A stretch of 64,000 nucleotides of DNA from a bacterium (GCA_016699595.1 CP064982.1:507962-571961), one strand, 5' to 3'. Positions 21,713 through 54,071 are shown, counted from the stretch's first letter. Notes: a model not told the origin generated them from the letters alone. Made by a program: numbers and translations.

Positions 21713-22960
21713 TCATATGCGTTTCATCTCTTTTGCTAACTCAACCTCATATTCATCTGGAGTTGCTGAGACATAAATTGTTTGATGAAGTTTTGAGTTA
21801 AATTCTTCAAACTTGAGAGGTCTATTGTCAAGTGCAGAAGGAAGTCTGAAGCCATACTCAACTAAGTTCGTTTTCCTTGCTCGATCTCCATTGTACATTC
21901 CACGAACTTGCGGAATAGTCATATGAGATTCATCAACTACAAGCAACCAATCTTTTGGAAAATAGTCAAGAAGTGTGCTAGGAGAACTTCCAACTTCTCT
22001 ACCTTCAATGATTCTGGAGTAGTTTTCGATTCCAGAAACATAACCGACTTCTTGAAGCATTTCAATATCAAAATTAACTCGCTGCTCAATTCTTTTTGAT
22101 TCAACTATTAGGCTCCTATTTTTGAAGTAATCAATTCTTTTGACTAACTCTTCTTGAATTTTTGGAATAGATGAAACAAGTTTTTCTTCTGGAGTTACAT
22201 ATTGTTTTGCAGGAAAGATTTTTATTTCAGTAATGCTGCTTCCCTGGATACTTTCCGGTTTATTTCCAATTTTCTCTCCAGTTAGTGGATGAAATAAGTT
22301 AATTTGTTCCAAAGTATCTCCAAAAAATTCAAGTCGAATTGCATTTTCACCTCCAACTTGATAAATATCTATGATATCGCCTCGAATTCTGAAACTTCCT
22401 GGGATGAAATCAAGCTCAGATCTTTCATACTGAAGATCAATCAACTGATGAATGAGTTTGTCTCTTGGGTAATCTTCTCGAACTTTCAAATTTCTAGTTA
22501 AAGCCATATAATCTTCAGGGTTTCCAAGTCCATAAATTGCAGAAACAGAAGCAACTATGATCACATCTGATCGAGTTAGTAATGACTGAGTAGTTGCAGC
22601 TCTATAGCGCTCAATATCTTTATTTATATCAACTTCCTTTTCAATGTAAAGATCTTTACTTGGAACATAGCTTTCCGGTTGATAATAGTCATAATAAGAA
22701 ATGAAGTATTCAACTGCATTATTGGGAAAAAACTCTTTAAATTCTGAAAATAACTGTGCTGCTAGAGTTTTGTTGTGAGCAAGAACTAGTGTTGGTTTTT
22801 GGATATTTTCGATAACATTTGCAATTGTGAAAGTTTTCCCAGTTCCAGTTGCACCAAGTAAGACTTGATTTTTCAAACCATAATTTATTCCTTGCGTTAG
22901 ATAATCTATAGCTTTTGGCTGATCTCCAGATGGTTTGTACTTAGAATGAAGTTGAAACAT
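21713..22960 (-). CDS. uvrB: UvrB excinuclease subunit, N-terminal 415 aa only (truncated or split)
   Basis: KPSGDQPKAI, LLGATGTGKTF Walker A, YFISYYDYYQPE, VDESHMTIPQ, RLPSALDNRPLKFEEF, IYVSATP; ORF stops where UvrB domain 3 should begin. Confidence 0.8.
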   Translation of the reverse strand: MFQLHSKYKPSGDQPKAIDYLTQGINYGLKNQVLLGATGTGKTFTIANVIENIQKPTLVLAHNKTLAAQLFSEFKEFFPNNAVEYFISYYDYYQPESYVPSKDLYIEKEVDINKDIERYRAATTQSLLTRSDVIIVASVSAIYGLGNPEDYMALTRNLKVREDYPRDKLIHQLIDLQYERSELDFIPGSFRIRGDIIDIYQVGGENAIRLEFFGDTLEQINLFHPLTGEKIGNKPESIQGSSITEIKIFPAKQYVTPEEKLVSSIPKIQEELVKRIDYFKNRSLIVESKRIEQRVNFDIEMLQEVGYVSGIENYSRIIEGREVGSSPSTLLDYFPKDWLLVVDESHMTIPQVRGMYNGDRARKTNLVEYGFRLPSALDNRPLKFEEFNSKLHQTIYVSATPDEYEVELAKEMKRI

Positions 22961-22968
22961 AAATTTAA

Positions 22969-23793
22969 CTAATCTTTAAATAACTCTAATATCATTTTTC
23001 TATAAATATTTTTAACAATATCATAATGTTCTTCCGAGAATTCAGAAAATATCTTTAGTGAAGCTGAACCATTTACTTCCAATATTATAGGTTGTCCAAA
23101 TTCATCAATAAGAAAATCTACTCCAGCATACCTTAATTCCATAATTTTGCAAGCTTTCTTTGATGCATCAGCAATCTTGTCCTTTAAATCACTAGAAACA
23201 TTCAATTCTGGAATTGCACCTTCAGACAAATTATGTTTCCAACTTGTAGTTCTTTTCTTAGCATAAACAAGTTCTATTTCACCATTCAAAATTATACATC
23301 TATATTCAAATTCAGAATCAATAAATGGATTTACTACGAAATTAAAATAAGTCTTTACTTGGTTTAAATAATATTGCAAAAAGATCTCTTTAAAATCATT
23401 TAAGTTTTCTATCTTATAAACATCTTTTCCACCAGATGAATTAAGAGGTTTAATAACTATTGGAAATTTTTCATTTTTTACAAATTCATAAGCTAAATTG
23501 AAGAATTTCTCAAACTTATTTTCTGTTTCTATTTCATTATCCAATGTCCAAAATAATTTGTATTCTACAACATTTATATTTTCATGCGAAAGAATTTCAT
23601 AAGTAATTTGTTTATCTTTTGCAAGCTCCAAAGCATTTCCAGAATTTGGATTTGGTTGTTTATTTAAAATATATTTAGTTACTTCACCATTCGTAAGCTT
23701 CGCAAGATATTTATCATTTTGCAAATATTTTATTTTTACCCTTGCTTCCTTGCATACTTCTTCTAAAACTTTGAATAAACTATCGTTTTGCAT
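22969..23793 (-). CDS. ATP-grasp family protein
   Basis: 274 aa; fold-level resemblance (IVIKPLNSSGGKDV, EVNGSASL) to RimK/glutathione-synthetase-type ATP-grasp enzymes. Confidence 0.5.
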   Translation of the reverse strand: MQNDSLFKVLEEVCKEARVKIKYLQNDKYLAKLTNGEVTKYILNKQPNPNSGNALELAKDKQITYEILSHENINVVEYKLFWTLDNEIETENKFEKFFNLAYEFVKNEKFPIVIKPLNSSGGKDVYKIENLNDFKEIFLQYYLNQVKTYFNFVVNPFIDSEFEYRCIILNGEIELVYAKKRTTSWKHNLSEGAIPELNVSSDLKDKIADASKKACKIMELRYAGVDFLIDEFGQPIILEVNGSASLKIFSEFSEEHYDIVKNIYRKMILELFKD

Positions 23794-23818: not shown

Positions 23819-24685
23819 ATGCTGAATATTATATCAGTTCTAAAACCCTATAACCCAGAAACTAAATCCGGTCTAATCGTTTTTGATAAACCTACGGGAA
23901 TTACTACGAATGACTTGGTTTATCAAGTTCGAAAAGAATACGGAACTCGCAAAGTTGGTGCAGCTGGAGTTCTAGATCCATTCGCAACTGGTGCTGTGAT
24001 AATAGGTATAGGAAATTGTACAAAAGACCTGACTCAATTTGAAAATTGTGAAAAGACTTACGAATTTGAGATGATTTTCGGACTTCAAACCTTGTCTGGA
24101 GACAATCAAGATATGATCGTAGATATCGTTCCTTTTAGGAAGGTGCCAAATGTCAATGAGGCGAAAGGTTTAAGTATAGATACTCTTGCAACTAATCGTC
24201 AAAATATTATTTCTACTTTTCCTAACTCCTACTTTCAAGAAGTTCCACTTTTGAGTTCAGTTAAGGTTCAAGGTCATAAACTTCGAGAATTAACTAGGAA
24301 GAATGTAAATAATATTGAATTCCTAAGCGAATATAAGTTCAATATAAAAACAGAAAGAGAAGTAAACTTCAAAAAAAGTGAAATAATACTCAAAATTCCA
24401 AGAAGAAAAGTTGAGATAAAGAGTTTAGAATTACTTGAGACCGGAACAAAGAGTTATAATCAAATTATACAAAATGCAAGTCAAGAATTTATAAATTCTT
24501 TTAATTGCTTCCTTGGGGAAGCTGTCCCGCAAAGCGGGGCTGAAGGGGTTCATTTCTCTTATTTCAAGTTCAAAACAACAGTTTCCAAAGGAACATATAT
24601 CCGAAAACTTGCAGAAGATATAGCTTTCTTGAATAATGAATTGGGGTGTGTGATGCTTTTAAGCAGGACGTCTTATATAGCTTAA
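23819..24685 (+). CDS. truB: tRNA pseudouridine(55) synthase TruB
   Basis: KPTGITTNDLV, GAAGVLDPFATG catalytic Asp motif, SKGTYIRKLAEDI. Confidence 0.85.
   Translation: MLNIISVLKPYNPETKSGLIVFDKPTGITTNDLVYQVRKEYGTRKVGAAGVLDPFATGAVIIGIGNCTKDLTQFENCEKTYEFEMIFGLQTLSGDNQDMIVDIVPFRKVPNVNEAKGLSIDTLATNRQNIISTFPNSYFQEVPLLSSVKVQGHKLRELTRKNVNNIEFLSEYKFNIKTEREVNFKKSEIILKIPRRKVEIKSLELLETGTKSYNQIIQNASQEFINSFNCFLGEAVPQSGAEGVHFSYFKFKTTVSKGTYIRKLAEDIAFLNNELGCVMLLSRTSYIA
24506..24558. repeat. GC-rich double-hairpin palindromic element, copy A, in-frame within truB
   Basis: GCTTCCTTGGGGAAGCTGTCCCGCAAAGCGGGGCTGAAGGGGTTCATTTCTC; close match to 53853-53905; encodes FLGEAVPQSGAEGVHFS. Confidence 0.65.
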
Positions 24686-25181: not shown

Positions 25182-28100
25182 TTAAATATACTTCAAGAAG
25201 AAAATCTTCTTCCCTGTTGATGCGAGAGAACCCAAAATCTCTCCAAAATTGATATTTTCAATATCAGAATCAATTATATTTACAGACTCTTCGTTTGAAG
25301 GTCTTTCCGTAGATGAGTACTTCTCAGGTTGTGACTCTACGACTCGATATTGACCAGGCAATAAATCAGTGAATTCATAATAGCCGAATTCATCAGTCAG
25401 AACTATTTGCCCATTTGACAAAGTCATTTTGATACCTGCAAGTGATCTGTCGCCATAATTCTTTGATTTATCGGCATTTTTATCATGATATACATAACCA
25501 GATATTGTATACAGTTTTAATCTAGCATATGCCAAGTCAGTATCCATAACATTAGCAGGTTGCCCAGATGGTAGAAGTGGTGGAGTAGCTACTACTGTTG
25601 CTACATTCACATGCTGACTTGAATCAGTTGGTGCAAGATAAGTTGCAGTACATTGCATACTCTCTCCTTCAGTCAAAACATCTTTCGGACACTGAATATT
25701 ATTTATAAGATTATCTGTAACTGATATATCATGTAGATTTGTATTTCCAGTGTTTGTCACATAGTATGTTATATTCATCATTTCTCCAGCAGATACTACA
25801 ACACCCGGAGGTGTATTTGCATCATCTCCGTTTATTTTCTTAACAATACTAATTGATGAAGATGTACCAACTAAACCTGCATCTATTGTTAAATTATTTT
25901 CTCCGACCATAAGCTCAAATTGTTCCGTATCTCCAAGAGCATCAGAATTTGAATCTGTCAAAAAACTCCCACCATTCTTGTATGTAAATTCATAACCATT
26001 AGGTTTAGCAAACCTTACTTTATAACTTCCATGCAATATATTTTCAAAAAGATAGTGTCCATCTGCATCAGTGAAAACAGTTCCAACTACATTATTCAAG
26101 CTATCCAATAATTCAACTTTCATATTTCCAAACCCAGATTCATCATTATCTTGGATCCCGTTGCCATTCTTATCTAACCAAACAAAGTTACCTATACTTC
26201 CATTAACTACTATTATAGGTACATTATTTGACTGTACTGGTAAAGCTAGACCTGTAGCTCTAAGCATAAACTTGTTTGTATAAATATCTCCTGGTTTATT
26301 CGGATTTGATATAGAAGGTATCAATACCAGCAGATACTTTGATTCTTCATTAGGTAACATTGCACTTGTTTGTATTCTAAAACCAGTAACCTCAGTTATG
26401 TTTGACGGACATCCGGCATTACCGAACTGACCTTGAGCACACCAAACTATACTTGGATTGATGGTTTGTGGGTCAAAGTCTTGAGGAAGCGTCAACAAAG
26501 ATTGTGATTGTTTCGAGTAAAGTATTGCACTTGGATCTACTCCAGATACTTTTGTCAAACTACTCAAGTAAGTAGTTCCTGTAAAATTCGTTGCAGGATT
26601 GCGCCCATCACCATTCCATGGTAGCCAATCGATGAGGTCAGTTCCAGCAACTGGATCACTTCCGGTGTTTTTCATCACAATTTCATACTCAAGTGGTTGC
26701 ATACTCTCAATTAGGGGTGAAATTGCTTTTTTGTTTACCGAAAAAGCAGATGAATTTTCAAACTGTACTGTAGCAGTAGAAGTTCGTACACTTTCAAACG
26801 AATTATCATTATCTGCAGACATAATTGCTTGATTAATTTTGATATCTCCATTACCAATGGTTGCATCTGAAATTGTTTTATATGTAATTTTTGTCAGGGG
26901 TAAACCAGAGGTTACATTACCAAAATTCCAAACTAATGTTGCACTTCCATCATTGTTCACAGTGAATGTTGGTTCACAAGTTACAGGTTGAATCATATCA
27001 GTATCCATACATATAGAAGAGCCATATTGATATCCCAATCCAGCAGGAATTGTATCTACTATTTTTACATTTATTGCTTCACCGGCTGGAGTTACTCCCA
27101 TAGCATCAGTACTTGGTTGCAAGTACCAGTTTATCTCACTCCCTGATAATTTCGAATCATTTTTTGTAGTTAAATCTTTCGTTGTTTTATTTATCCTAAC
27201 TCTAGAACCTGTAACTATTACCCTATCTCCGTGAGTGCCAGTAGCAGTATTTGCATTATAAGAAGGAACTGTTTGCCATGAACTTGGGTCATTTGGATTT
27301 GCATTAAACCAATTCCCACCTGGTATGTACCACTTACCATAATTTGGAACTATATCGCCAGGTTGTGCTGTAGGCAACATCTTATGTTTAATTGCTAAAA
27401 ATTGTACGCCATAACCTGTTTGGGCTATCATATCAGCCTGTTCAGATGCAGTAAAATTATCCCTAAATTTCAACCTAACTTTTGTAACCCGTTCAGGACC
27501 TCCAGGTATACTGTTTAGATCCAAATACCATATTCCCCCAGTAGAGTCATTATCAAAACATGTGCCAAGTCTTTCATCTTCAAAATTACTCCATGTAATT
27601 CCTTGACCATTTAGACCACCTACTCCATATTCAATAACTGCATCAGTATATGATTCCCATAAACTTGAATTTGATGGAATATGAGTAAATGCACCTTCAC
27701 CAGTATTTCCAGGGATTCTATCTATTGAAGAATTTTTGTTATCTATAGTTGTACACATAATCGAACCATTTGGTATATCAGCTATCCCATAATAATACCA
27801 AAGATTCAATGACGTCCAATTTGAATTGGCACTTAAAAACCCATCTCCTGTACGATAGGATGATCCAACATATTCTGCACCCCACCACATTGCACATGAA
27901 TCAGCATTTGCTTCAGTAATAAAGTTACAATTAATCAAATCATCGCTACGATAATCATAATCAGCTTTTTCAACCGAACCTTCAGATGGTCTAGCTATAA
28001 TTTGTTGATACCAGTTTTCAGTTCCCACTAAATCTGACTGTCCTGTTGTTTGTATATTTGTCATTCCACTACCTGGCTCATTACCAACCCCGCCCCAGTT

Positions 28101-29267
28101 TTGCCTTCCTGATATTGCTCCAATTGGCTCAAAGTTATTTATTTTATTCAGAGCAGAGATCTGATACTGATTTGATCCAGAAAACTCTGAATATGGTATC
28201 CATACACCTATTGAATACGAACCAATCCAATTATCTCTTGAAGATAAAGACACACCCGTCCAATCAACAGTTGGGAAATAAGATGGATTTGTATGAAGAT
28301 CAGTAATTGTTACATCAATTAACTGTGAATTACCCATACTAGGAATACAAGTTATTTGCCCTGAATCTTCCACAGATCTGTCAGGCGTTGAATAGCCAGG
28401 GTTATTCCCTCCATAAATACCTAATCTTCCAGCAGGTGCATTATAAGCATAGTGAAGGTTATTCGTAAATCCAGGGGTAGAAAAATAATTTAGTGACAAT
28501 CCGCATTCAAACAATTTTGCATTGGGACTAATCATTGATATATCATCTTGAAAAGTTATTGGTAAGGCAGGAATTTCTGATCCTGCACGAAGTTTCAAGC
28601 CAACTCCATAAGTCCATACTCCTCCAACTACACCATCTACTGTTATGGTTCCTCTAAATGAGGCTGACAATTTCTGTAAATCCACCTTCATGGCAGATGT
28701 TCCAGTTATATCAACTGTTGTTGCATTATCAGTATTTGGTACACCAGAAACTGAAACTGAAGCAGATACATTGAAAGTACTCCCATCAACTAATGTAGGC
28801 AAAGCTTTTACATTTGCTGTGAAACCCAGCGTATCACCCGTAGATTTTGTACCTAAGTTACATGTCAATTGACTTTGATTGTTAACGCCATCACCAGTTA
28901 TTTGTGAACCAGTTCCATTACAAACCAATGGAAGTGCTTCCCATTTATACCCTAGAGGTAAAGGAACTGTAGTCAATGTATAATTATCATAAGGGCTTGG
29001 AACAGTAGCATTTGGATCATTCAGAGAAACATCAAATCGATAGCTTGTTATCTGACCAGCCCGAACTATCTCATTACTATCACCAATGTCATTACCCGAA
29101 CCTGCAACAGAATCAAAAGGTGCAGTACCATCGAATAGTTTCGTGATAGCGATTTCAGGATAAGTGGTCGTGGAATCAGCATTAACTTTCAATTTATAGT
29201 CACTGTAAATATTTATAGATAAAAAAACAAATACAAAAAGTGTTATTAGTTTAAAGAATTTTTTCAT
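25182..29267 (-). CDS. Large secreted surface protein (1361 aa) with SdrD/Cna B-type domains and C-terminal SLASTGK motif
   Basis: Signal peptide MKKFFKLITLFVFVFLSINIYS; B-type repeats (GNFVWLDKNGNGIQD..., YTISGYVYHDKNADKSKNYGD...); C-terminus GSLASTGKKIFFLKYI. Confidence 0.75.
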   Translation of the reverse strand: MKKFFKLITLFVFVFLSINIYSDYKLKVNADSTTTYPEIAITKLFDGTAPFDSVAGSGNDIGDSNEIVRAGQITSYRFDVSLNDPNATVPSPYDNYTLTTVPLPLGYKWEALPLVCNGTGSQITGDGVNNQSQLTCNLGTKSTGDTLGFTANVKALPTLVDGSTFNVSASVSVSGVPNTDNATTVDITGTSAMKVDLQKLSASFRGTITVDGVVGGVWTYGVGLKLRAGSEIPALPITFQDDISMISPNAKLFECGLSLNYFSTPGFTNNLHYAYNAPAGRLGIYGGNNPGYSTPDRSVEDSGQITCIPSMGNSQLIDVTITDLHTNPSYFPTVDWTGVSLSSRDNWIGSYSIGVWIPYSEFSGSNQYQISALNKINNFEPIGAISGRQNWGGVGNEPGSGMTNIQTTGQSDLVGTENWYQQIIARPSEGSVEKADYDYRSDDLINCNFITEANADSCAMWWGAEYVGSSYRTGDGFLSANSNWTSLNLWYYYGIADIPNGSIMCTTIDNKNSSIDRIPGNTGEGAFTHIPSNSSLWESYTDAVIEYGVGGLNGQGITWSNFEDERLGTCFDNDSTGGIWYLDLNSIPGGPERVTKVRLKFRDNFTASEQADMIAQTGYGVQFLAIKHKMLPTAQPGDIVPNYGKWYIPGGNWFNANPNDPSSWQTVPSYNANTATGTHGDRVIVTGSRVRINKTTKDLTTKNDSKLSGSEINWYLQPSTDAMGVTPAGEAINVKIVDTIPAGLGYQYGSSICMDTDMIQPVTCEPTFTVNNDGSATLVWNFGNVTSGLPLTKITYKTISDATIGNGDIKINQAIMSADNDNSFESVRTSTATVQFENSSAFSVNKKAISPLIESMQPLEYEIVMKNTGSDPVAGTDLIDWLPWNGDGRNPATNFTGTTYLSSLTKVSGVDPSAILYSKQSQSLLTLPQDFDPQTINPSIVWCAQGQFGNAGCPSNITEVTGFRIQTSAMLPNEESKYLLVLIPSISNPNKPGDIYTNKFMLRATGLALPVQSNNVPIIVVNGSIGNFVWLDKNGNGIQDNDESGFGNMKVELLDSLNNVVGTVFTDADGHYLFENILHGSYKVRFAKPNGYEFTYKNGGSFLTDSNSDALGDTEQFELMVGENNLTIDAGLVGTSSSISIVKKINGDDANTPPGVVVSAGEMMNITYYVTNTGNTNLHDISVTDNLINNIQCPKDVLTEGESMQCTATYLAPTDSSQHVNVATVVATPPLLPSGQPANVMDTDLAYARLKLYTISGYVYHDKNADKSKNYGDRSLAGIKMTLSNGQIVLTDEFGYYEFTDLLPGQYRVVESQPEKYSSTERPSNEESVNIIDSDIENINFGEILGSLASTGKKIFFLKYI

Positions 29268-36911: not shown

Positions 36912-37340
36912 TTACAAAAGTGATTTTGAAACAAAAACATCAACAAAATTGAATTTTTTATTCAAAGGAACATCCTTCAAAACTTTAATTTCTAACACTT
37001 TTCCTTGCTTTACTTTGGTAGCATTCATCTCAAGCAACTTAGCAACAGTAATTTCATCATTTTCATTGAAATGATCGTTTATATATGATGATTTTATAAG
37101 CACTCTTTGAATATTTAACTTTCTTTGTGACTTAAAACCTCGCAATTTAGGAAGTCTCCTTGAAATTCTGTTTTGACCACCTTCAAAATCTAGCGAAGGT
37201 AATTTCGCTCCAGATCTGCTCATTTGTCCATTCATACCTCGGCCTGTAGTATGTGCACCTTTTCCACTGCCAGCACCTCTACCTACGATCTTTGCCCTTT
37301 TTTGATAATTTTTTTGTTTTGGTAGAGAATGTAAATTCAT
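36912..37340 (-). CDS. rplO: 50S ribosomal protein L15
   Basis: GRGAGSGKGAHTTGRG glycine-rich motif. Confidence 0.95.
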   Translation of the reverse strand: MNLHSLPKQKNYQKRAKIVGRGAGSGKGAHTTGRGMNGQMSRSGAKLPSLDFEGGQNRISRRLPKLRGFKSQRKLNIQRVLIKSSYINDHFNENDEITVAKLLEMNATKVKQGKVLEIKVLKDVPLNKKFNFVDVFVSKSLL

Positions 37341-37350
37341 TTGAATAGTA

Positions 37351-37947
37351 CTATTTTTTCAACATAGTTAAACCTTTCATAGTTGCATAAGCATTTGAAA
37401 CTGGATTTGAACAACCAAGTTGCTTTGTTAAAATATCACTTACACCAGCCATTTCCAATACTTTTCTAACTGGTCCCCCAGCGATAATACCAGTTCCAGG
37501 AGCTGCTGGTTTCAACATCACTTTTGCAGCACCAAACTTCACAGTTATTTCATGAGGTATTGTCCTACCTTTCAAATTTACTTTAACTAATTTCCGCTTA
37601 GCTCTTTCAAGTGCTTTTTCCTGAGCTATTTTAGTGTCAATTCCCTTACCAGAACCAATTGCTAATCTACCTTTTTTGTCGCCAACGACCATAAATACTG
37701 ACATCCTCATTCTTTTTCCTCCAGAATGCACCTTTGTTACTCTTTTCATTTTCAGCAAAACATGATCAAGTTCCTTTTCTTTCTTTTGAGATGATTGTTG
37801 AGTAGTATTTGGAGCAGAAACCCTACCTTGTATAAGGTTTGAAACCCCTTGTTTTCTCCTTTGTACAATTCGTTGTCTGTTACTATCAACTTCATTCGTT
37901 TTTGAAGCTAGTTGTGCTTGGTTTTCAGTTATCATTTTATCATCCAT
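37351..37947 (-). CDS. rpsE: 30S ribosomal protein S5 (with N-terminal extension)
   Basis: uS5 core MVVGDKKGRLAIGSGKG...GTGIIAGGPVRKVLEMAGV; only 10 nt from rplO, so no room for an L30 gene. Confidence 0.95.
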   Translation of the reverse strand: MDDKMITENQAQLASKTNEVDSNRQRIVQRRKQGVSNLIQGRVSAPNTTQQSSQKKEKELDHVLLKMKRVTKVHSGGKRMRMSVFMVVGDKKGRLAIGSGKGIDTKIAQEKALERAKRKLVKVNLKGRTIPHEITVKFGAAKVMLKPAAPGTGIIAGGPVRKVLEMAGVSDILTKQLGCSNPVSNAYATMKGLTMLKK

Positions 37948-49636: not shown

Positions 49637-51844
49637 TCAATGAAAAAGAGAGTGTATTAAAGAAAGTAGTACATTCATCTTACCAGTACTAGCTAGAGAT
49701 GCATTGATACTAATACTAACATCCGTACTCCCCAAAACTCCTGCTATACTCTCTTTCGATACGGTTAGCATGTAGCTACTACCTGTTAGGTTTGCATTTG
49801 ATACACAACTTACACTACTTCCTGTTGCTGGTGTAGGTGTACATGTAAAGTTTGGTATAGTAACCTTATCTCCTACTTCCGTTACCACAACTACTGTAGG
49901 CTTGGTACTGTTCGTACTTGATAAGATTTCTACACGGGTACTTGTTTGTATAACTAAATTCAATACAGTCGATCTTGCTGATTCTTGTCCTGATCCATTT
50001 GTATCAGTATAACTGAGTACATAACTAGCATTTGTTACTGGGAATATCAAATTCAATGTGACTGGTCCAGTAGTTGTACATGTATAAGTTGTGAGTAGGT
50101 CATTACCACTATACACTTTTAGAGTATTTCCTACTTCACTACATATCAAGCTTACATCTGGTGTATTGTCTGATGTGACATTGTCAGTAGAAGATATACC
50201 TGTATCGCTACTAGTTAGCAGGTCAATCATTACAGGTTGAGTTGGTGGGGTACTTTCACTTACATACACATTGAAATTTTTGTCAAATACTCCCCCTAGG
50301 TTATCTGTTACTCTGATACATAGACTGTAGATACTTTTCGTTTCATAGTCTGGTTGTACATTTAGTCTTAGGTTGTTTGTTGATATATTGAAACTTCCAT
50401 CATCTAATCCTGGTACTGCACATGATAGGGAGTATGTATATGGTGAGTCTCCTTCTGCATCTGTTGCTGTCAGTACTCCAACTAGGTATGGTGATACTAT
50501 ACTCTCTGTTACTACATTATTACTTAGGCTTATGTCAGTAGGATCTTCGTTAGTATAGGTTACAAATACATCTACTATTGAATTTGTATCCCCAGGAACG
50601 AGGTTGTTAGCATCGGAAGTGAATGTTACAAATCTTCCGTCTGCAGAAATTGAAGAGAATCCAGAAAAATTATTTCCTTCTACTCCACTACTACTTACCG
50701 ATACTCTTTCTACAGTATCAGTATCTCGATCATATACAAAAATATCCTCAGTAACATTGGCATCACCAGGGACTAAATTGTTAGCATCAGAAGTGAATGT
50801 TACAAATCTTCCATCTGTAGAGATTGAAGGTACATATGAGTAGTCATTACCTTCTACCCCAGTACCACTTACTGATACTCTTTCTATATTGTCAGTATCT
50901 CGATCATATACAAATACATCTGCCATTGAATTCGTATCTCCAGGAACTAAATTGTTAGCAGCAGAAGTGAATGTTACAAATCTTCCATTTGTAGAAATTG
51001 AAGGTTCATATGAACCATCATTACCCTGTACTCCACTACTACTTACCGATACTCTTTCTACAGTATCAGTATCTCGATCATATACAAAAATATCCTCAGT
51101 AACATTGGCATCACCAGGGACTAAATTGTTAGCATCAGAAGTGAATGTTACAAATCTTCCATCTGCAGAAATTGAAGGTTCATATGAATCAATATTACCC
51201 TGTACCCCACTACTACTTACCGATACTCTTTCTACAGTGTCAGTATTTTGATCATACACAAAGATATCATCTCTAGCATTTGTATCTCCAGAAACTAAAT
51301 TGTCAGCTCGTGAAGTAAATGTTACAAATCTTCCATCTGCAGAAATTGAAGGTTGATATGAAACATGATTACCCTCTACCCCAGTACCACTTACTGATAC
51401 TCTTTCTATACTATCAGTATCTCGATCATACACAAAAATATCAGCTCTAGCATTTGTATCACCAGGGACGAGGTTATTAGCAGCAGAATAGAATGTTACA
51501 AATCTCCCATCTGCAGAAATTGAAGATTCATATGAGTAGTCATTACCTTCTACCCCAGTACCACTTACTGATACTCTTTCTATACTATCAGTATCTCGAT
51601 CATACACAAAAATATCAGCTCTAGCATTTGTATCACCAGGGACGAGGTTATTAGCATCGGAAGTGAATGTTACAAATCTTCCATCCGTAGAGGTTGAAGA
51701 TAAATATGAACCATCATTACCCTGTACTCCAGTACTATCAACTGATATTCTCTCTACATATCTTGTAGTAGCTGCATACGTAGGAAGGGTAAATATACCA
51801 AGTAGCAATAGTGTGTATGTTGTTAATTTGAGCAGTGTTTTCAT
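49637..51844 (-). CDS. Secreted surface protein with ~7 tandem 59-aa PD40/TolB-like repeats and C-terminal SLASTGK motif
   Basis: Signal peptide MKTLLKLTTYTLLLLGIFTLPTYAA; repeats of ERVSVSxxGVxGNxxSYxPSISxDGRFVTFTSxANNLVPGDTNxxxDIFVYDRDTD; C-terminus ASLASTGKMNVLLSLIHSLFH. Confidence 0.7.
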   Translation of the reverse strand: MKTLLKLTTYTLLLLGIFTLPTYAATTRYVERISVDSTGVQGNDGSYLSSTSTDGRFVTFTSDANNLVPGDTNARADIFVYDRDTDSIERVSVSGTGVEGNDYSYESSISADGRFVTFYSAANNLVPGDTNARADIFVYDRDTDSIERVSVSGTGVEGNHVSYQPSISADGRFVTFTSRADNLVSGDTNARDDIFVYDQNTDTVERVSVSSSGVQGNIDSYEPSISADGRFVTFTSDANNLVPGDANVTEDIFVYDRDTDTVERVSVSSSGVQGNDGSYEPSISTNGRFVTFTSAANNLVPGDTNSMADVFVYDRDTDNIERVSVSGTGVEGNDYSYVPSISTDGRFVTFTSDANNLVPGDANVTEDIFVYDRDTDTVERVSVSSSGVEGNNFSGFSSISADGRFVTFTSDANNLVPGDTNSIVDVFVTYTNEDPTDISLSNNVVTESIVSPYLVGVLTATDAEGDSPYTYSLSCAVPGLDDGSFNISTNNLRLNVQPDYETKSIYSLCIRVTDNLGGVFDKNFNVYVSESTPPTQPVMIDLLTSSDTGISSTDNVTSDNTPDVSLICSEVGNTLKVYSGNDLLTTYTCTTTGPVTLNLIFPVTNASYVLSYTDTNGSGQESARSTVLNLVIQTSTRVEILSSTNSTKPTVVVVTEVGDKVTIPNFTCTPTPATGSSVSCVSNANLTGSSYMLTVSKESIAGVLGSTDVSISINASLASTGKMNVLLSLIHSLFH
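50524..51769. repeat. Tandem ~177-nt repeat array (about 7 units) inside the PD40-repeat surface protein gene
   Basis: Some adjacent units are near-identical at nucleotide level over more than 100 nt (e.g. around 51377-51480 versus 51554-51657). Confidence 0.7.
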
Positions 51845-51898
51845 GTGAAAATTATTTAAGTTGATGCTAAACAATGCAATTTTATGTTAAATGCAATT

Positions 51899-52463: not shown

Positions 52464-54071
52464 CTATTCTTCATTCCTCTTTTCCCACTCCATCCCAAAC
52501 TTACAAATTTTGTCCTCTTCAAATCTACTTCCTATTATCTGCATACCGATCGGAAGTTTCATGCAAACTTCACCCAAGTAATTTTTCCCAAATCCAGCTG
52601 GGTCAACAGTTGTTTTATAACCAACATTTATAGATAACCCTGGAATTCCTGCTGCATTGACTGGAATTGTGAATATATCAGCAAGATAATTGAAAACCGG
52701 ATCATCACTTTTTGTCCCAATTCCCCAAGCAACAACTGGTGAAGTAGGTGCCATTATGACATCAACTTTCTCAAATGCTTTATCAAAATCTTGTTTAATA
52801 AGCGTTCTTACTTGCATAGCTTTACTGTAATACCTGTCAGCATAACCTTTCGCCGAAGTATAAGTTCCAATCATGATTCTTCTTTTCACTTCGGGTTCAA
52901 GCAAAGCTCTATTCTCAAGATAAAATGATTCTAAATCTTGTGCATTATTCAAGGCCTCTTTTGCATCAATTGGATTGTTTTGGTCAATTTCTTTCGAAAG
53001 CCCTCCATATCTGATTCCATCAAACCTTCCCATATTACTTGCAATTTCAGTAGGAACTACGACATAGTAAACGGGGACAGCATACTTGGTATACGGCATC
53101 TGGATATCTACTAGCTCACAACCCATAATCTCAAACTCCTTGATCGCATCTAGAACAACCTTTTTGATATCTTCATCTACTCCATCTGCAAAATATTCTT
53201 GGGGAATTCCAATCTTCATACCAGCAATTGAGCTTGATTTCAATTTATCTAATTCTGATTTTACTTTTTCTACAAATTCAGATGAACTAGTATCTATGCC
53301 TTGCCCTAAAAATGGTTCATGTGAACTTGTCCCGTCTTTTGGATCATGACCTTCTATGTACTTCTGCACTATCCAAGCATCTTCAGTATTTTTTGCGAGA
53401 ACTCCAGGAGTGTCCCAACTACTTCCCATAGCAATCAAACCATACCTAGAATTTCTACCATAGCTTACTTTAAGTCCAGAAAGTCCAGTAAGTGCTGCAG
53501 GTTGCCGTATCGAACCACCTGTGTCAGTTCCTATTGAATATTCTCCGACTTCAAGTTTTACTGCAGCAGCAGATCCTGATGAGCTTCCACCAGTTATTCT
53601 GTTTATACAAACTGGATTTCTTGTTGGTCCAAACCCTGAATTTTCTCCACTTGCACCAAATGCAAACGGATCAGAATTGTTTTTTCCAATCATTATAGCT
53701 CCTGCTTTGTCAAGTCTGGCATGCGTAGTAGAGTCATATTGAGGGATGTAAGTATTGAGCATTTTTGAACTTGCAGTAGTTCGAATTCCCTTTGTAACTA
53801 TAACATCTTTGATTGTCATCGGAATTCCAGCAAGTAATGATTCTGTACTAACTGCTTCCTTGGGGAAGCTCCCCGCATTTTGCGGGGTGAATGGGTTTTT
53901 CATTTTCTCATCTACTTGCAAAGCCTTTTCTAATGCTTCTTTATCTGTCAAAGTATTTAGGAAATTTATTTCAGAGTTATACTTTTTGACTTTGTCAATT
54001 GCTACTTGAGTAAGTTCAGTTGAACTAATTTCTTTATTTTGTAGTTTTTTGTGAATATCCAAAATCGACAT
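52464..54071 (-). CDS. gatA: Glu-tRNA(Gln)/Asp-tRNA(Asn) amidotransferase subunit A
   Basis: Amidase signature GGSSSGSAAAV, GIPMTIKD, GTDTGGSIRQPAA. Confidence 0.9.
   Translation of the reverse strand: MSILDIHKKLQNKEISSTELTQVAIDKVKKYNSEINFLNTLTDKEALEKALQVDEKMKNPFTPQNAGSFPKEAVSTESLLAGIPMTIKDVIVTKGIRTTASSKMLNTYIPQYDSTTHARLDKAGAIMIGKNNSDPFAFGASGENSGFGPTRNPVCINRITGGSSSGSAAAVKLEVGEYSIGTDTGGSIRQPAALTGLSGLKVSYGRNSRYGLIAMGSSWDTPGVLAKNTEDAWIVQKYIEGHDPKDGTSSHEPFLGQGIDTSSSEFVEKVKSELDKLKSSSIAGMKIGIPQEYFADGVDEDIKKVVLDAIKEFEIMGCELVDIQMPYTKYAVPVYYVVVPTEIASNMGRFDGIRYGGLSKEIDQNNPIDAKEALNNAQDLESFYLENRALLEPEVKRRIMIGTYTSAKGYADRYYSKAMQVRTLIKQDFDKAFEKVDVIMAPTSPVVAWGIGTKSDDPVFNYLADIFTIPVNAAGIPGLSINVGYKTTVDPAGFGKNYLGEVCMKLPIGMQIIGSRFEEDKICKFGMEWEKRNEE
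53853..53905. repeat. GC-rich double-hairpin palindromic element, copy B, in-frame within gatA (coded on the opposite strand to copy A)
   Basis: GCTTCCTTGGGGAAGCTCCCCGCATTTTGCGGGGTGAATGGGTTTTTCATTTTCTC; encodes KNPFTPQNAGSFPKEAV. Confidence 0.65.

Follow-up and report, generated by a model that had tools for sequence, protein, structure and literature searches.

The window analysed here, i.e. the whole stretch of 64,000 nucleotides from a bacterial genome record (GCA_016699595.1 CP064982.1:507962-571961), contains the essential genes truB and gatA on opposite strands, and within each of them lies one copy of a short GC-rich element that consists of two adjacent hairpins followed by a tail. 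The copy in truB is called copy A and the one in gatA copy B.

The element in truB and gatA

The two host genes and the parts of the element are the following:

23819..24685, + strand: host gene truB, 288 amino acids, TruB_N catalytic domain without a PUA domain; matches Pfam TruB_N and solved structures of TruB
24506..24547, + strand: copy A, 42-base core (TGCTTCCTTGGGGAAGCT, hairpin 2 and TGAAGGG), predicted to be translated in truB as C230-G243, CFLGEAVPQSGAEG
24507..24522, + strand: hairpin 1 of copy A, GCTTCC-TTGG-GGAAGC; the identical sequence recurs in copy B and each of the five metagenomic copies described below
24524..24540, + strand: hairpin 2 of copy A, GTCCCGC-AAA-GCGGGGC, 7-bp stem with one T.G pair
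24541..24550, + strand: conserved 3' tail of copy A, TGAAGGGGTT
52464..54071, - strand: host gene gatA, 535 amino acids
53853..53894, + strand (the same as copy A): copy B, 42-base core, read antisense by gatA as P60-A73, PFTPQNAGSFPKEA
53854..53869, + strand: hairpin 1 of copy B, GCTTCC-TTGG-GGAAGC
53871..53887, + strand: hairpin 2 of copy B, CCCCGCA-TTT-TGCGGGG, 7 bp
53888..53897, + strand: tail of copy B, TGAATGGGTT, one mismatch to the consensus

The GC-rich stretch in truB (24506-24558) reads TGCTTCCTTGGGGAAGCTGTCCCGCAAAGCGGGGCTGAAGGGGTTCATTTCTC and is composed of hairpin 1, hairpin 2, whose core CCCGC-AAA-GCGGG lies at 24526-24538, and the tail; the end of the tail was placed at 24550 or 24558, and the boundaries of the element are uncertain by 1-2 bases. 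With 65% GC, compared to 33.5% for the window, the 40-mer at 24507-24546 ties as the most GC-rich 40-mer of the window. Folded as single-stranded DNA, copy A is predicted to form two hairpins on either strand (z = -3.9 to -4.0 versus dinucleotide shuffles); for both copies and either strand the z-scores of the two-hairpin fold range from -3.9 to -6.5, and none of 200 dinucleotide shuffles folds as well. Covariance model R1 detects copy A with 64.9 bits (E 2e-18, span 24503-24558) and copy B with 67.6 bits (E 3e-19, span 53850-53906). The first-pass annotation had described two adjacent GC-rich palindromes in truB upstream of SKGTYIR, which add residues without breaking the frame, and this description is borne out by the sequence, the folding z-scores and the GC scan: the 42-base insert starts with codon 230 at 24506, adds C230-G243, lies 13 residues upstream of VSKGTYIR and leaves the frame open. 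Four of the six reading frames of copy A are open, and the other two hold a stop, such as the TGA in the tail.

Copy B, which was located by blastn-short and a GC scan, has the sequence TGCTTCCTTGGGGAAGCTCCCCGCATTTTGCGGGGTGAATGG. Its hairpin 1 is identical to that of copy A in 18 of 18 bases, and the core is exactly 42 bases long in each copy. In hairpin 2 the core of the stem is kept and the loop differs (AAA versus ATTTT/TTT), with a shift of one base; overall, about 39 of 47 aligned columns are identical (~83%). To judge from this alignment, the copies are clearly homologous, though not near-identical. The first-pass annotation had placed a near-identical copy in gatA on the opposite coding strand; the copy was found there, but the degree of identity had been overstated (a 46-base search with three mismatches missed copy B). 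The scan of the source genome covered the window and an extension of 5.6 kb to its right, about 70 kb of the 761,814-bp record. Searches of the window with blastn-short, nhmmer and the covariance model (filters off) gave no third copy, and the extension (Logan contigs) contained no further copy.

Comparison with orthologues showed that both segments are additions to the host proteins. Residues 61-74 of GatA are a clean insertion of 14 residues that is found only in the window protein among 19 aligned GatAs and is absent from all 18 others, including the closest relative (59% identity); it is a gap in comparison to GatA from P. aeruginosa (4wj3). Apart from the window protein, only two close relatives, P0002 (82% identity) and P0003 (73%), have the TruB insert, and in TruBs with about 40% identity the segment is largely absent, with a variable length of this region. 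In the AlphaFold2 models the predicted local distance difference test (pLDDT) score averages 90.5 for GatA, falling to 65 and 76 in the blocks 61-70 and 71-80, which are mostly coil; the mean for TruB is 90.0, with a drop to 69 in block 231-240 and coil at 236-244 between a helix and a strand. Coil and low pLDDT suggest that both inserts form loops, and the conservation of the frame suggests that the peptide stretches FLGEAVPQSGAEG and NPFTPQNAGSFPK are translated. Extra residues in TruB relative to its orthologues, and a loop in structure models, had both been anticipated in the first-pass annotation and agree with these results.

The TruB protein belongs to a short form (288 amino acids) that stops right after the catalytic domain, and its closest homologues are likewise 255-304 amino acids long. 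It has a second lineage-specific segment at residues ~105-130 (pLDDT 50-72), which is absent from the GC-rich 40-mer scan and from the searches for element copies. GatA likewise contains a query-specific segment, residues 359-373 (KEIDQNNPIDAKEAL, window 52950-53020), located in a region (~350-390) with pLDDT values of 52-69. This segment is absent from the GC-rich, hairpin and element-model scans and is unrelated to the element.

Copies in distant bacteria and the unit that is conserved

A scan of metagenomes with the pattern TTCCTTGGGGAAGCTN{0,2}CCCGC yielded 12 loci, six of which are chance matches in GC-rich DNA without the rest of the element. The other six have the whole architecture and represent five independent contexts (L015 is the same as L011 at the element):

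L005 (44% GC): in frame in IleRS, sense; clean 14-residue gap versus PDB 8c8w exactly at ASLGKLPLTKAGEG
L011 (46% GC): in frame in an open reading frame (ORF) for a TsaC(YrdC)-TsaE fusion; adjoins a hairpin CCCTCCC-TT-GGGAGGG
L008 (38% GC): intergenic, between adk and map in the ribosomal-protein operon; two additional GC hairpins come after it
L016: intergenic, upstream of a nuclease gene
L006: intergenic, between convergent genes; among other TCCCGC-type hairpins

All five copies consist of TGCTTCCTTGGGGAAGCT, a GC hairpin and TGAAGGGGT(T), and the tail reads TGAAGGGGTT in four of the five and TGAAGGGGTC in L011. The scan pattern did not include the tail, the TGC in front or the complementary 3' arm of hairpin 2, and these three are therefore independent evidence of homology. 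The stems of hairpin 2 are CCCGC, TCCCGC...GCGGGA or CCCCGC...GCGGGG and the loops have 3-26 bases, with the pairing kept throughout. The family is thus not private to the source genome. A palindromic repeat family that tolerates insertion into coding regions had been proposed in the first-pass annotation, and the same architecture in five independent metagenomic contexts, two of them in genes, bears this out; instead of the same peptide in unrelated TruBs and no further copies, which would have spoken against such a family, we found copies in other organisms.

Including copies A and B there are seven independent insertion sites, four of them inside ORFs and three intergenic. The four intragenic copies are read differently by their hosts: truB uses sense frame 1 (CFLGEA...), ileS sense frame 2 (ASLGKL...), gatA an antisense frame (...SFPKEA) and tsaC a second, different antisense frame (...ELPQGS). 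With four copies in four frames and orientations, the conserved unit is therefore the DNA and not the peptide. All intragenic copies leave the host frame open, and those we see are the ones that could be read through. The orientation of the element relative to transcription is not fixed either; it is sense in truB and ileS and antisense in gatA, tsaC and the adk-map operon of L008. A different explanation would be that an adaptive peptide module was selected in TruB and GatA and that the DNA hairpins are a by-product. That the in-frame insert is kept in three TruB orthologues, and that a 21-base addition to one of them (L002, see below) is also in frame, would be in line with such a module. 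Frame usage largely refutes it, since the same DNA gives four unrelated peptides; moreover, intergenic copies exist, both inserts are low-confidence coil, and residue changes cluster in or beside the insert of a 98% identical GatA. We therefore give selection for a peptide hardly any credence.

The ends of the element carry no terminal inverted repeats: the 5' end (TGCTTCCTTGGGG) and the reverse complement of the 3' end (AACCCCTTCA) are not complementary. Direct repeats indicating a target-site duplication are not present at the flanks of any of the seven copies, and the left flanks (TTAAT, CTAAC, AATCA, GTGCG, GTACT, GCCCA and GTGCG) have no motif in common. All seven copies begin with TGCTTCC, and GTAG is found at neither end.

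A short sequence that is unusually GC-rich for its surroundings and occurs in several metagenome assemblies could result from chance resemblance or from an assembly, adapter or chimera artefact. The expectation by chance is 0.00 occurrences for the pattern CCCGCNNNGCGGG, and the truB insertion is present in the NCBI metagenome-assembled genome as well as in independent Logan assemblies of two related species, where it carries substitutions and an in-frame indel. In addition, hairpin 2 differs among the copies yet stays paired, and the host frame is open in every intragenic copy. Chance or artefact can accordingly be given next to no weight.

Altogether, three spacers and no fewer than four different housekeeping genes of several very distant AT-rich bacteria contain the element. 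Between the host of L008 and the window, amino acid identity is 32-48% across S5, SecY, Adk, Map, S13, S11 and S4. Neither a copy nor GC-rich hairpins were found in 53 kb from three closer relatives (GatA 59% and 54%, TruB 37% identity). The distribution is patchy and out of step with phylogeny. Collections of viral contigs, phages and plasmids gave no match, and in assembled-genome contigs, a collection from which the window's own two copies, although exact matches, were not returned, the source genome thus not being readable there, the pattern TTGGGGAAGCTN{0,3}CCCGCN{2,7}GCGGGG had a single chance match in the GC-rich chromosome of Aerophototrophica. A protein search with a 707-amino-acid concatemer of the open frames from the seven copies returned nothing at E<=10, the matches being too short for a database of 5.8 billion sequences. 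Searches of Rfam 15 gave nothing above noise at either element, relaxed thresholds included, the only matches in the window being two tRNAs, and a literature search for the hairpin 1 15-mer CTTCCTTGGGGAAGC found no paper.

Several copies are accompanied by further hairpins. L008 (4105-4205, - strand) and L016 (4850-4925) share an identical third hairpin, GAAGGGGT-ttgaatgtgtt-ACCCCTTC, and a CCCTCCC-NN-GGGAGGG hairpin is located on the 3' side of the element in L008 and on its 5' side in L011 (3405-3430). In L008 four hairpins follow each other in a row. This suggests that the companion hairpins come from a set of modules which are joined to form mosaics, similar to bacterial interspersed mosaic elements (BIMEs). 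The length of the element depends on what is counted: 42 bases for the core, 56 positions for the R1 model and about 75 bases with the third hairpin.

The element drifts and loses its hairpins after insertion

The truB DNA of the two close relatives, both from related species, carries the same insertion. In L001 (89% identical over the gene) the element has four changes, two of which damage the hairpins: hairpin 2 has acquired a C.T mismatch and the outer pair of hairpin 1 is broken, in both cases without compensation. In L002 (76% identical) the hairpin 1 loop is longer by 21 bases, which keep the frame and fold as a small hairpin GGGTCC-GAA-GGATCCC (L002:2617-2690); hairpin 2 is essentially lost there, and the tail is intact, as are both arms of hairpin 1. 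The identity of the element to the window copy is 93% for L001 and 71% for L002, close to the gene means over 42-base windows (89% and 76%), and the element is therefore not specially conserved. Once inserted, it changes at the pace of the surrounding gene or at a higher one, and its hairpins are lost. Since the truB insert is shared and changed among three species, the insertion predates these species and drifts.

For gatA, a variant from another sample (P0242, 535 amino acids, 98% identical) also carries the insert. Five of its nine residue differences fall within residues 53-67 (V53E, E55K, M57R, P60T and G67V), and G67V would break hairpin 2. Either the insertion into gatA is younger than the one into truB or this region of gatA is fast-evolving.

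The loops of the hairpins seem to grow by nested additions, such as the 21 bases in hairpin 1 of L002 and the 26-base loop of hairpin 2 in L006 (L006:1125-1204, - strand). Local growth of palindromes or template switching at replication, together with gene conversion and without transposition, would explain these additions and also the fact that copy A stays at the consensus. Such local processes cannot give the same 18-mer and 10-mer at non-homologous sites in organisms with 33%, 38% and 44-46% GC, and we rate an origin by them as very unlikely.

More can be said for a functional structured nucleic-acid motif, for instance a protein-binding site or an element for RNA stability or termination, that is under selection in the host and tolerated in genes. 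Hairpin 1 and the tail have the same sequence in hosts that share just 32-48% identity in the proteins of the ribosomal operon, the outer pair of hairpin 2 differs in both of its bases (T-A, C-G), the intergenic copies are located between convergent genes and in the spacers of operons, and copy A is at the consensus despite the age of the insertion. However, sense and antisense copies are mixed, so no single RNA is conserved; hairpins have been lost from the orthologous copies, and no compensatory changes accompany the loss; Rfam has no match, and the motif is absent from the 53 kb of closer relatives. It would also be hard to explain why clean 14-residue insertions are found in four unrelated essential enzymes. 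A host function for the element is, in our opinion, unlikely.

Genes elsewhere in the window give indications about the host. At 36912-37947 (- strand) an ORF of 142 amino acids without Pfam match, whose position suggests L15, lies 10 bases beyond the gene for ribosomal protein S5 and is followed by SecY; an L30 gene would not fit between S5 and this ORF. The absence of L30 is typical of genomes from the Candidate Phyla Radiation. At 9133-12924 (- strand) a TraG/VirB4-type P-loop ATPase (766 amino acids) and a PrgI-family protein, both type IV secretion-like, are encoded next to ORFs without Pfam matches. The lack of L30 and the type IV secretion-like genes are consistent with a host from the Patescibacteria, without proving it.

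On one side of truB, an ATP-grasp (RimK-like) gene (22969-23793, - strand) is located between truB and a uvrB-like ORF (21713-22960, - strand); in L001 the latter two are adjacent. The uvrB-like ORF has only 415 amino acids and corresponds to the N-terminal half (ResIII and UvrB_inter domains), and the relative has the same form with 417 amino acids (L001:280-1533), which is therefore a conserved short or split UvrB and not an error. Directly downstream of truB (25182-29267, - strand) lies the gene for a predicted surface protein of 1361 amino acids with SdrD B-like, DUF7507 and SpaA prealbumin-like domains, which is missing there in L001. A second ORF, of 745 amino acids (49637..51874, - strand), contains seven tandem units of 174 bases (58 amino acids) at 50490-51833 and has Kelch/PD40 and bacterial Ig-like (Big_13) matches; it probably encodes a surface protein as well. 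Two tRNA-Met (CAT) genes are located 85 bases apart at 18324-18557 (- strand). GC skew is negative where the genes are on the - strand, and positive values are confined to 1-4 kb and 54-58 kb, with the genes on the + strand; the skew may follow the coding strand and not replication and is therefore unusable for orienting the element copies relative to the fork.

Interpretation and relation to known systems

The explanation we favour, and consider likely, is that of a short, non-coding, GC-rich selfish element that is non-autonomous, the copies being homologous insertions at non-homologous sites. Most likely it represents a new, very small, modular palindromic family in uncultivated bacteria with small genomes, which behaves like Rickettsia palindromic elements (RPEs), repetitive extragenic palindromes (REPs) and mitochondrial GC clusters. 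Its anatomy comprises an invariant hairpin 1 (TGCTTCC-TTGG-GGAAGCT), a variable hairpin 2 with the kept core CCCGC/GCGGG, and the conserved single-stranded tail TGAAGGGGTT; in hairpin 2 the outer pair as well as sequence and length of the loop vary among copies.

Such an element would spread, now or formerly, by insertion at many sites. The survivors in essential genes would be those that keep the frame, avoid the stop-containing frames and sit in a tolerant surface loop, so that about 14 extra residues are translated. Mobilisation might occur in trans, by an enzyme recognising hairpin 1 and the tail on single-stranded DNA; candidates would be a tyrosine transposase of the HUH type, similar to the REP-associated tyrosine transposases (RAYTs) or to those of IS200/IS605, or a homing-type nuclease. 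Since inverted repeats and duplications are missing and hairpin and tail are invariant, a trans-acting enzyme acting on folded single-stranded DNA is the likeliest mechanism. Presence in distant hosts would reflect horizontal spread. Mobility is suggested by the distribution; mobility, horizontal spread and the mechanism are what we infer from the copies, and the mobilising enzyme is the weakest step of this explanation.

Several points weigh against a selfish element. Only two copies are present in ~70 kb of the source genome, while a high copy number is the usual hallmark of a repeat family. The boundaries and the lack of a target duplication rest on seven flanks, with no pair of empty and filled sites at nucleotide resolution, and the scan pattern itself accounts in part for hairpin 1 being invariant among the metagenomic copies. 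Among the 30 window ORFs screened there is no transposase or nuclease candidate and no Y1_Tnp match, and the element has neither the GTAG known from REPs nor a fixed target as in IS200/IS605. Finally, hairpin 1 and the tail of copy A match the consensus perfectly despite the 24% divergence of the orthologous gene in L002, which may point to gene conversion from other copies, selection or constraint and not to purely neutral decay.

A bolder version of the selfish element would be an active, horizontally spreading hairpin transposon of ~42 bases, in which hairpin 1 and the tail are the recognition site of a trans-acting enzyme shared by distant, probably Patescibacteria-like, bacteria, and which seeds surface loops in TruB, GatA, IleRS and TsaC. 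We regard this as doubtful, though conceivable. If true, it would be a bacterial counterpart of the mitochondrial GC clusters with a mobilisation mechanism open to being worked out. To our knowledge, there is essentially one textbook bacterial example of in-frame selfish DNA in essential genes, the RPEs of Rickettsia, and we know of no case, neither RPEs nor mitochondrial GC clusters, in which the movement of such hairpin elements was ever resolved. The sharply defined anatomy and the covariance model provide a handle for genome-wide censuses and for phyletic profiling towards the mobilising enzyme, and the family could be used to study how neutral insertions make new loops in core enzymes. 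Such inserts also inflate apparent divergence and create lineage-specific 'domains' in phylogenetic marker genes.

A number of known structures were rejected by reading the sequence for their motifs, namely hammerhead, pistol and twister ribozymes, domain V of group II introns, the IMH (initiation of mutagenic homing) hairpin of diversity-generating retroelements, CRISPR repeats, dif sites and sequencing adapters. Either their core motifs (e.g. CUGANGA...GAAA of the hammerhead) are absent or the context (in frame, in both orientations, orthologous in three species) does not fit.

MITEs, the miniature inverted-repeat transposable elements, have terminal inverted repeats and target-site duplications as their defining features. 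They include Correia, ERIC, BOX and Nezha and are small non-autonomous repeats able to make in-frame fusions with host ORFs (PMC10969869). Our element shares the small size, the lack of autonomy and the ability to fuse in frame with a host ORF, but terminal inverted repeats and target-site duplications, both of which were looked for, are absent; it is not a MITE. Like the palindrome-associated transposable elements (PATEs) derived from IS200/IS605, which have subterminal hairpins but neither inverted repeats nor duplications, our element has two hairpins, no terminal inverted repeats and no target duplication; in contrast to them, it is not inserted 3' of a fixed tetra- or pentanucleotide target, its left flanks being different.

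REPs are extragenic by definition, have a conserved 5' GTAG and occur in hundreds of copies. Like REPs, the REPIN-RAYT system and BIMEs, the element is a short GC-rich imperfect palindrome without terminal inverted repeats or target duplications, with hairpin modules side by side. Unlike REPs, it has no GTAG, four of its copies are intragenic, and no RAYT is encoded among the screened ORFs.

Similar elements are known from mitochondria. Yeast mitochondrial GC clusters include the 42-base GC42, for which a putative AG target duplication was reported (PMC4478555); double-hairpin elements of Allomyces mitochondrial DNA are mentioned there with reference to Paquin et al. 2000, and repetitive hairpin-forming elements were found in sponge mitochondrial DNA (PMC2800124). 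Common to these and to our element are GC-rich islands of ~30-80 bases in an AT-rich genome, one or two hairpins, a patchy distribution, merging or nesting, and a suspected horizontal transfer. Such organellar elements also occur within genes. Their hosts are organelles, whereas the host here is bacterial (ribosomal-protein operon, tRNAs, gatA); an AG duplication is not seen here, and a relationship in sequence is not expected. In form, the element is closest to REP/BIME mosaics and to the mitochondrial GC clusters and double-hairpin elements.

The first-pass annotation had compared the element to the in-frame palindromes of Rickettsia. In R. conorii, 44 copies of RPEs are present. According to Ogata et al. 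2000, as summarised in PMC10969869, RPEs are palindromic repeats of ~100-150 bp inserted in frame in housekeeping genes of Rickettsia. RPE families are said to encode a conserved peptide. The resemblance holds for the position, in frame in unrelated genes, and not for the size. As with RPEs, non-coding palindromes lie in frame in unrelated housekeeping genes of a small AT-rich genome, the extra peptide fits the fold of the host protein, and intergenic copies occur too; stop-free in-frame insertion is seen in truB, gatA, ileS (L005) and tsaC-tsaE (L011). At 42-56 bases (~75 for the longest form) the element is considerably shorter than RPEs. RPEs are confined to Rickettsia, whereas the element is found in very distant uncultivated bacteria, uses four frames without a conserved peptide and is seen in two copies per ~70 kb. 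Judged by its size, it is not a member of the RPE families, and in behaviour it is closest to them.

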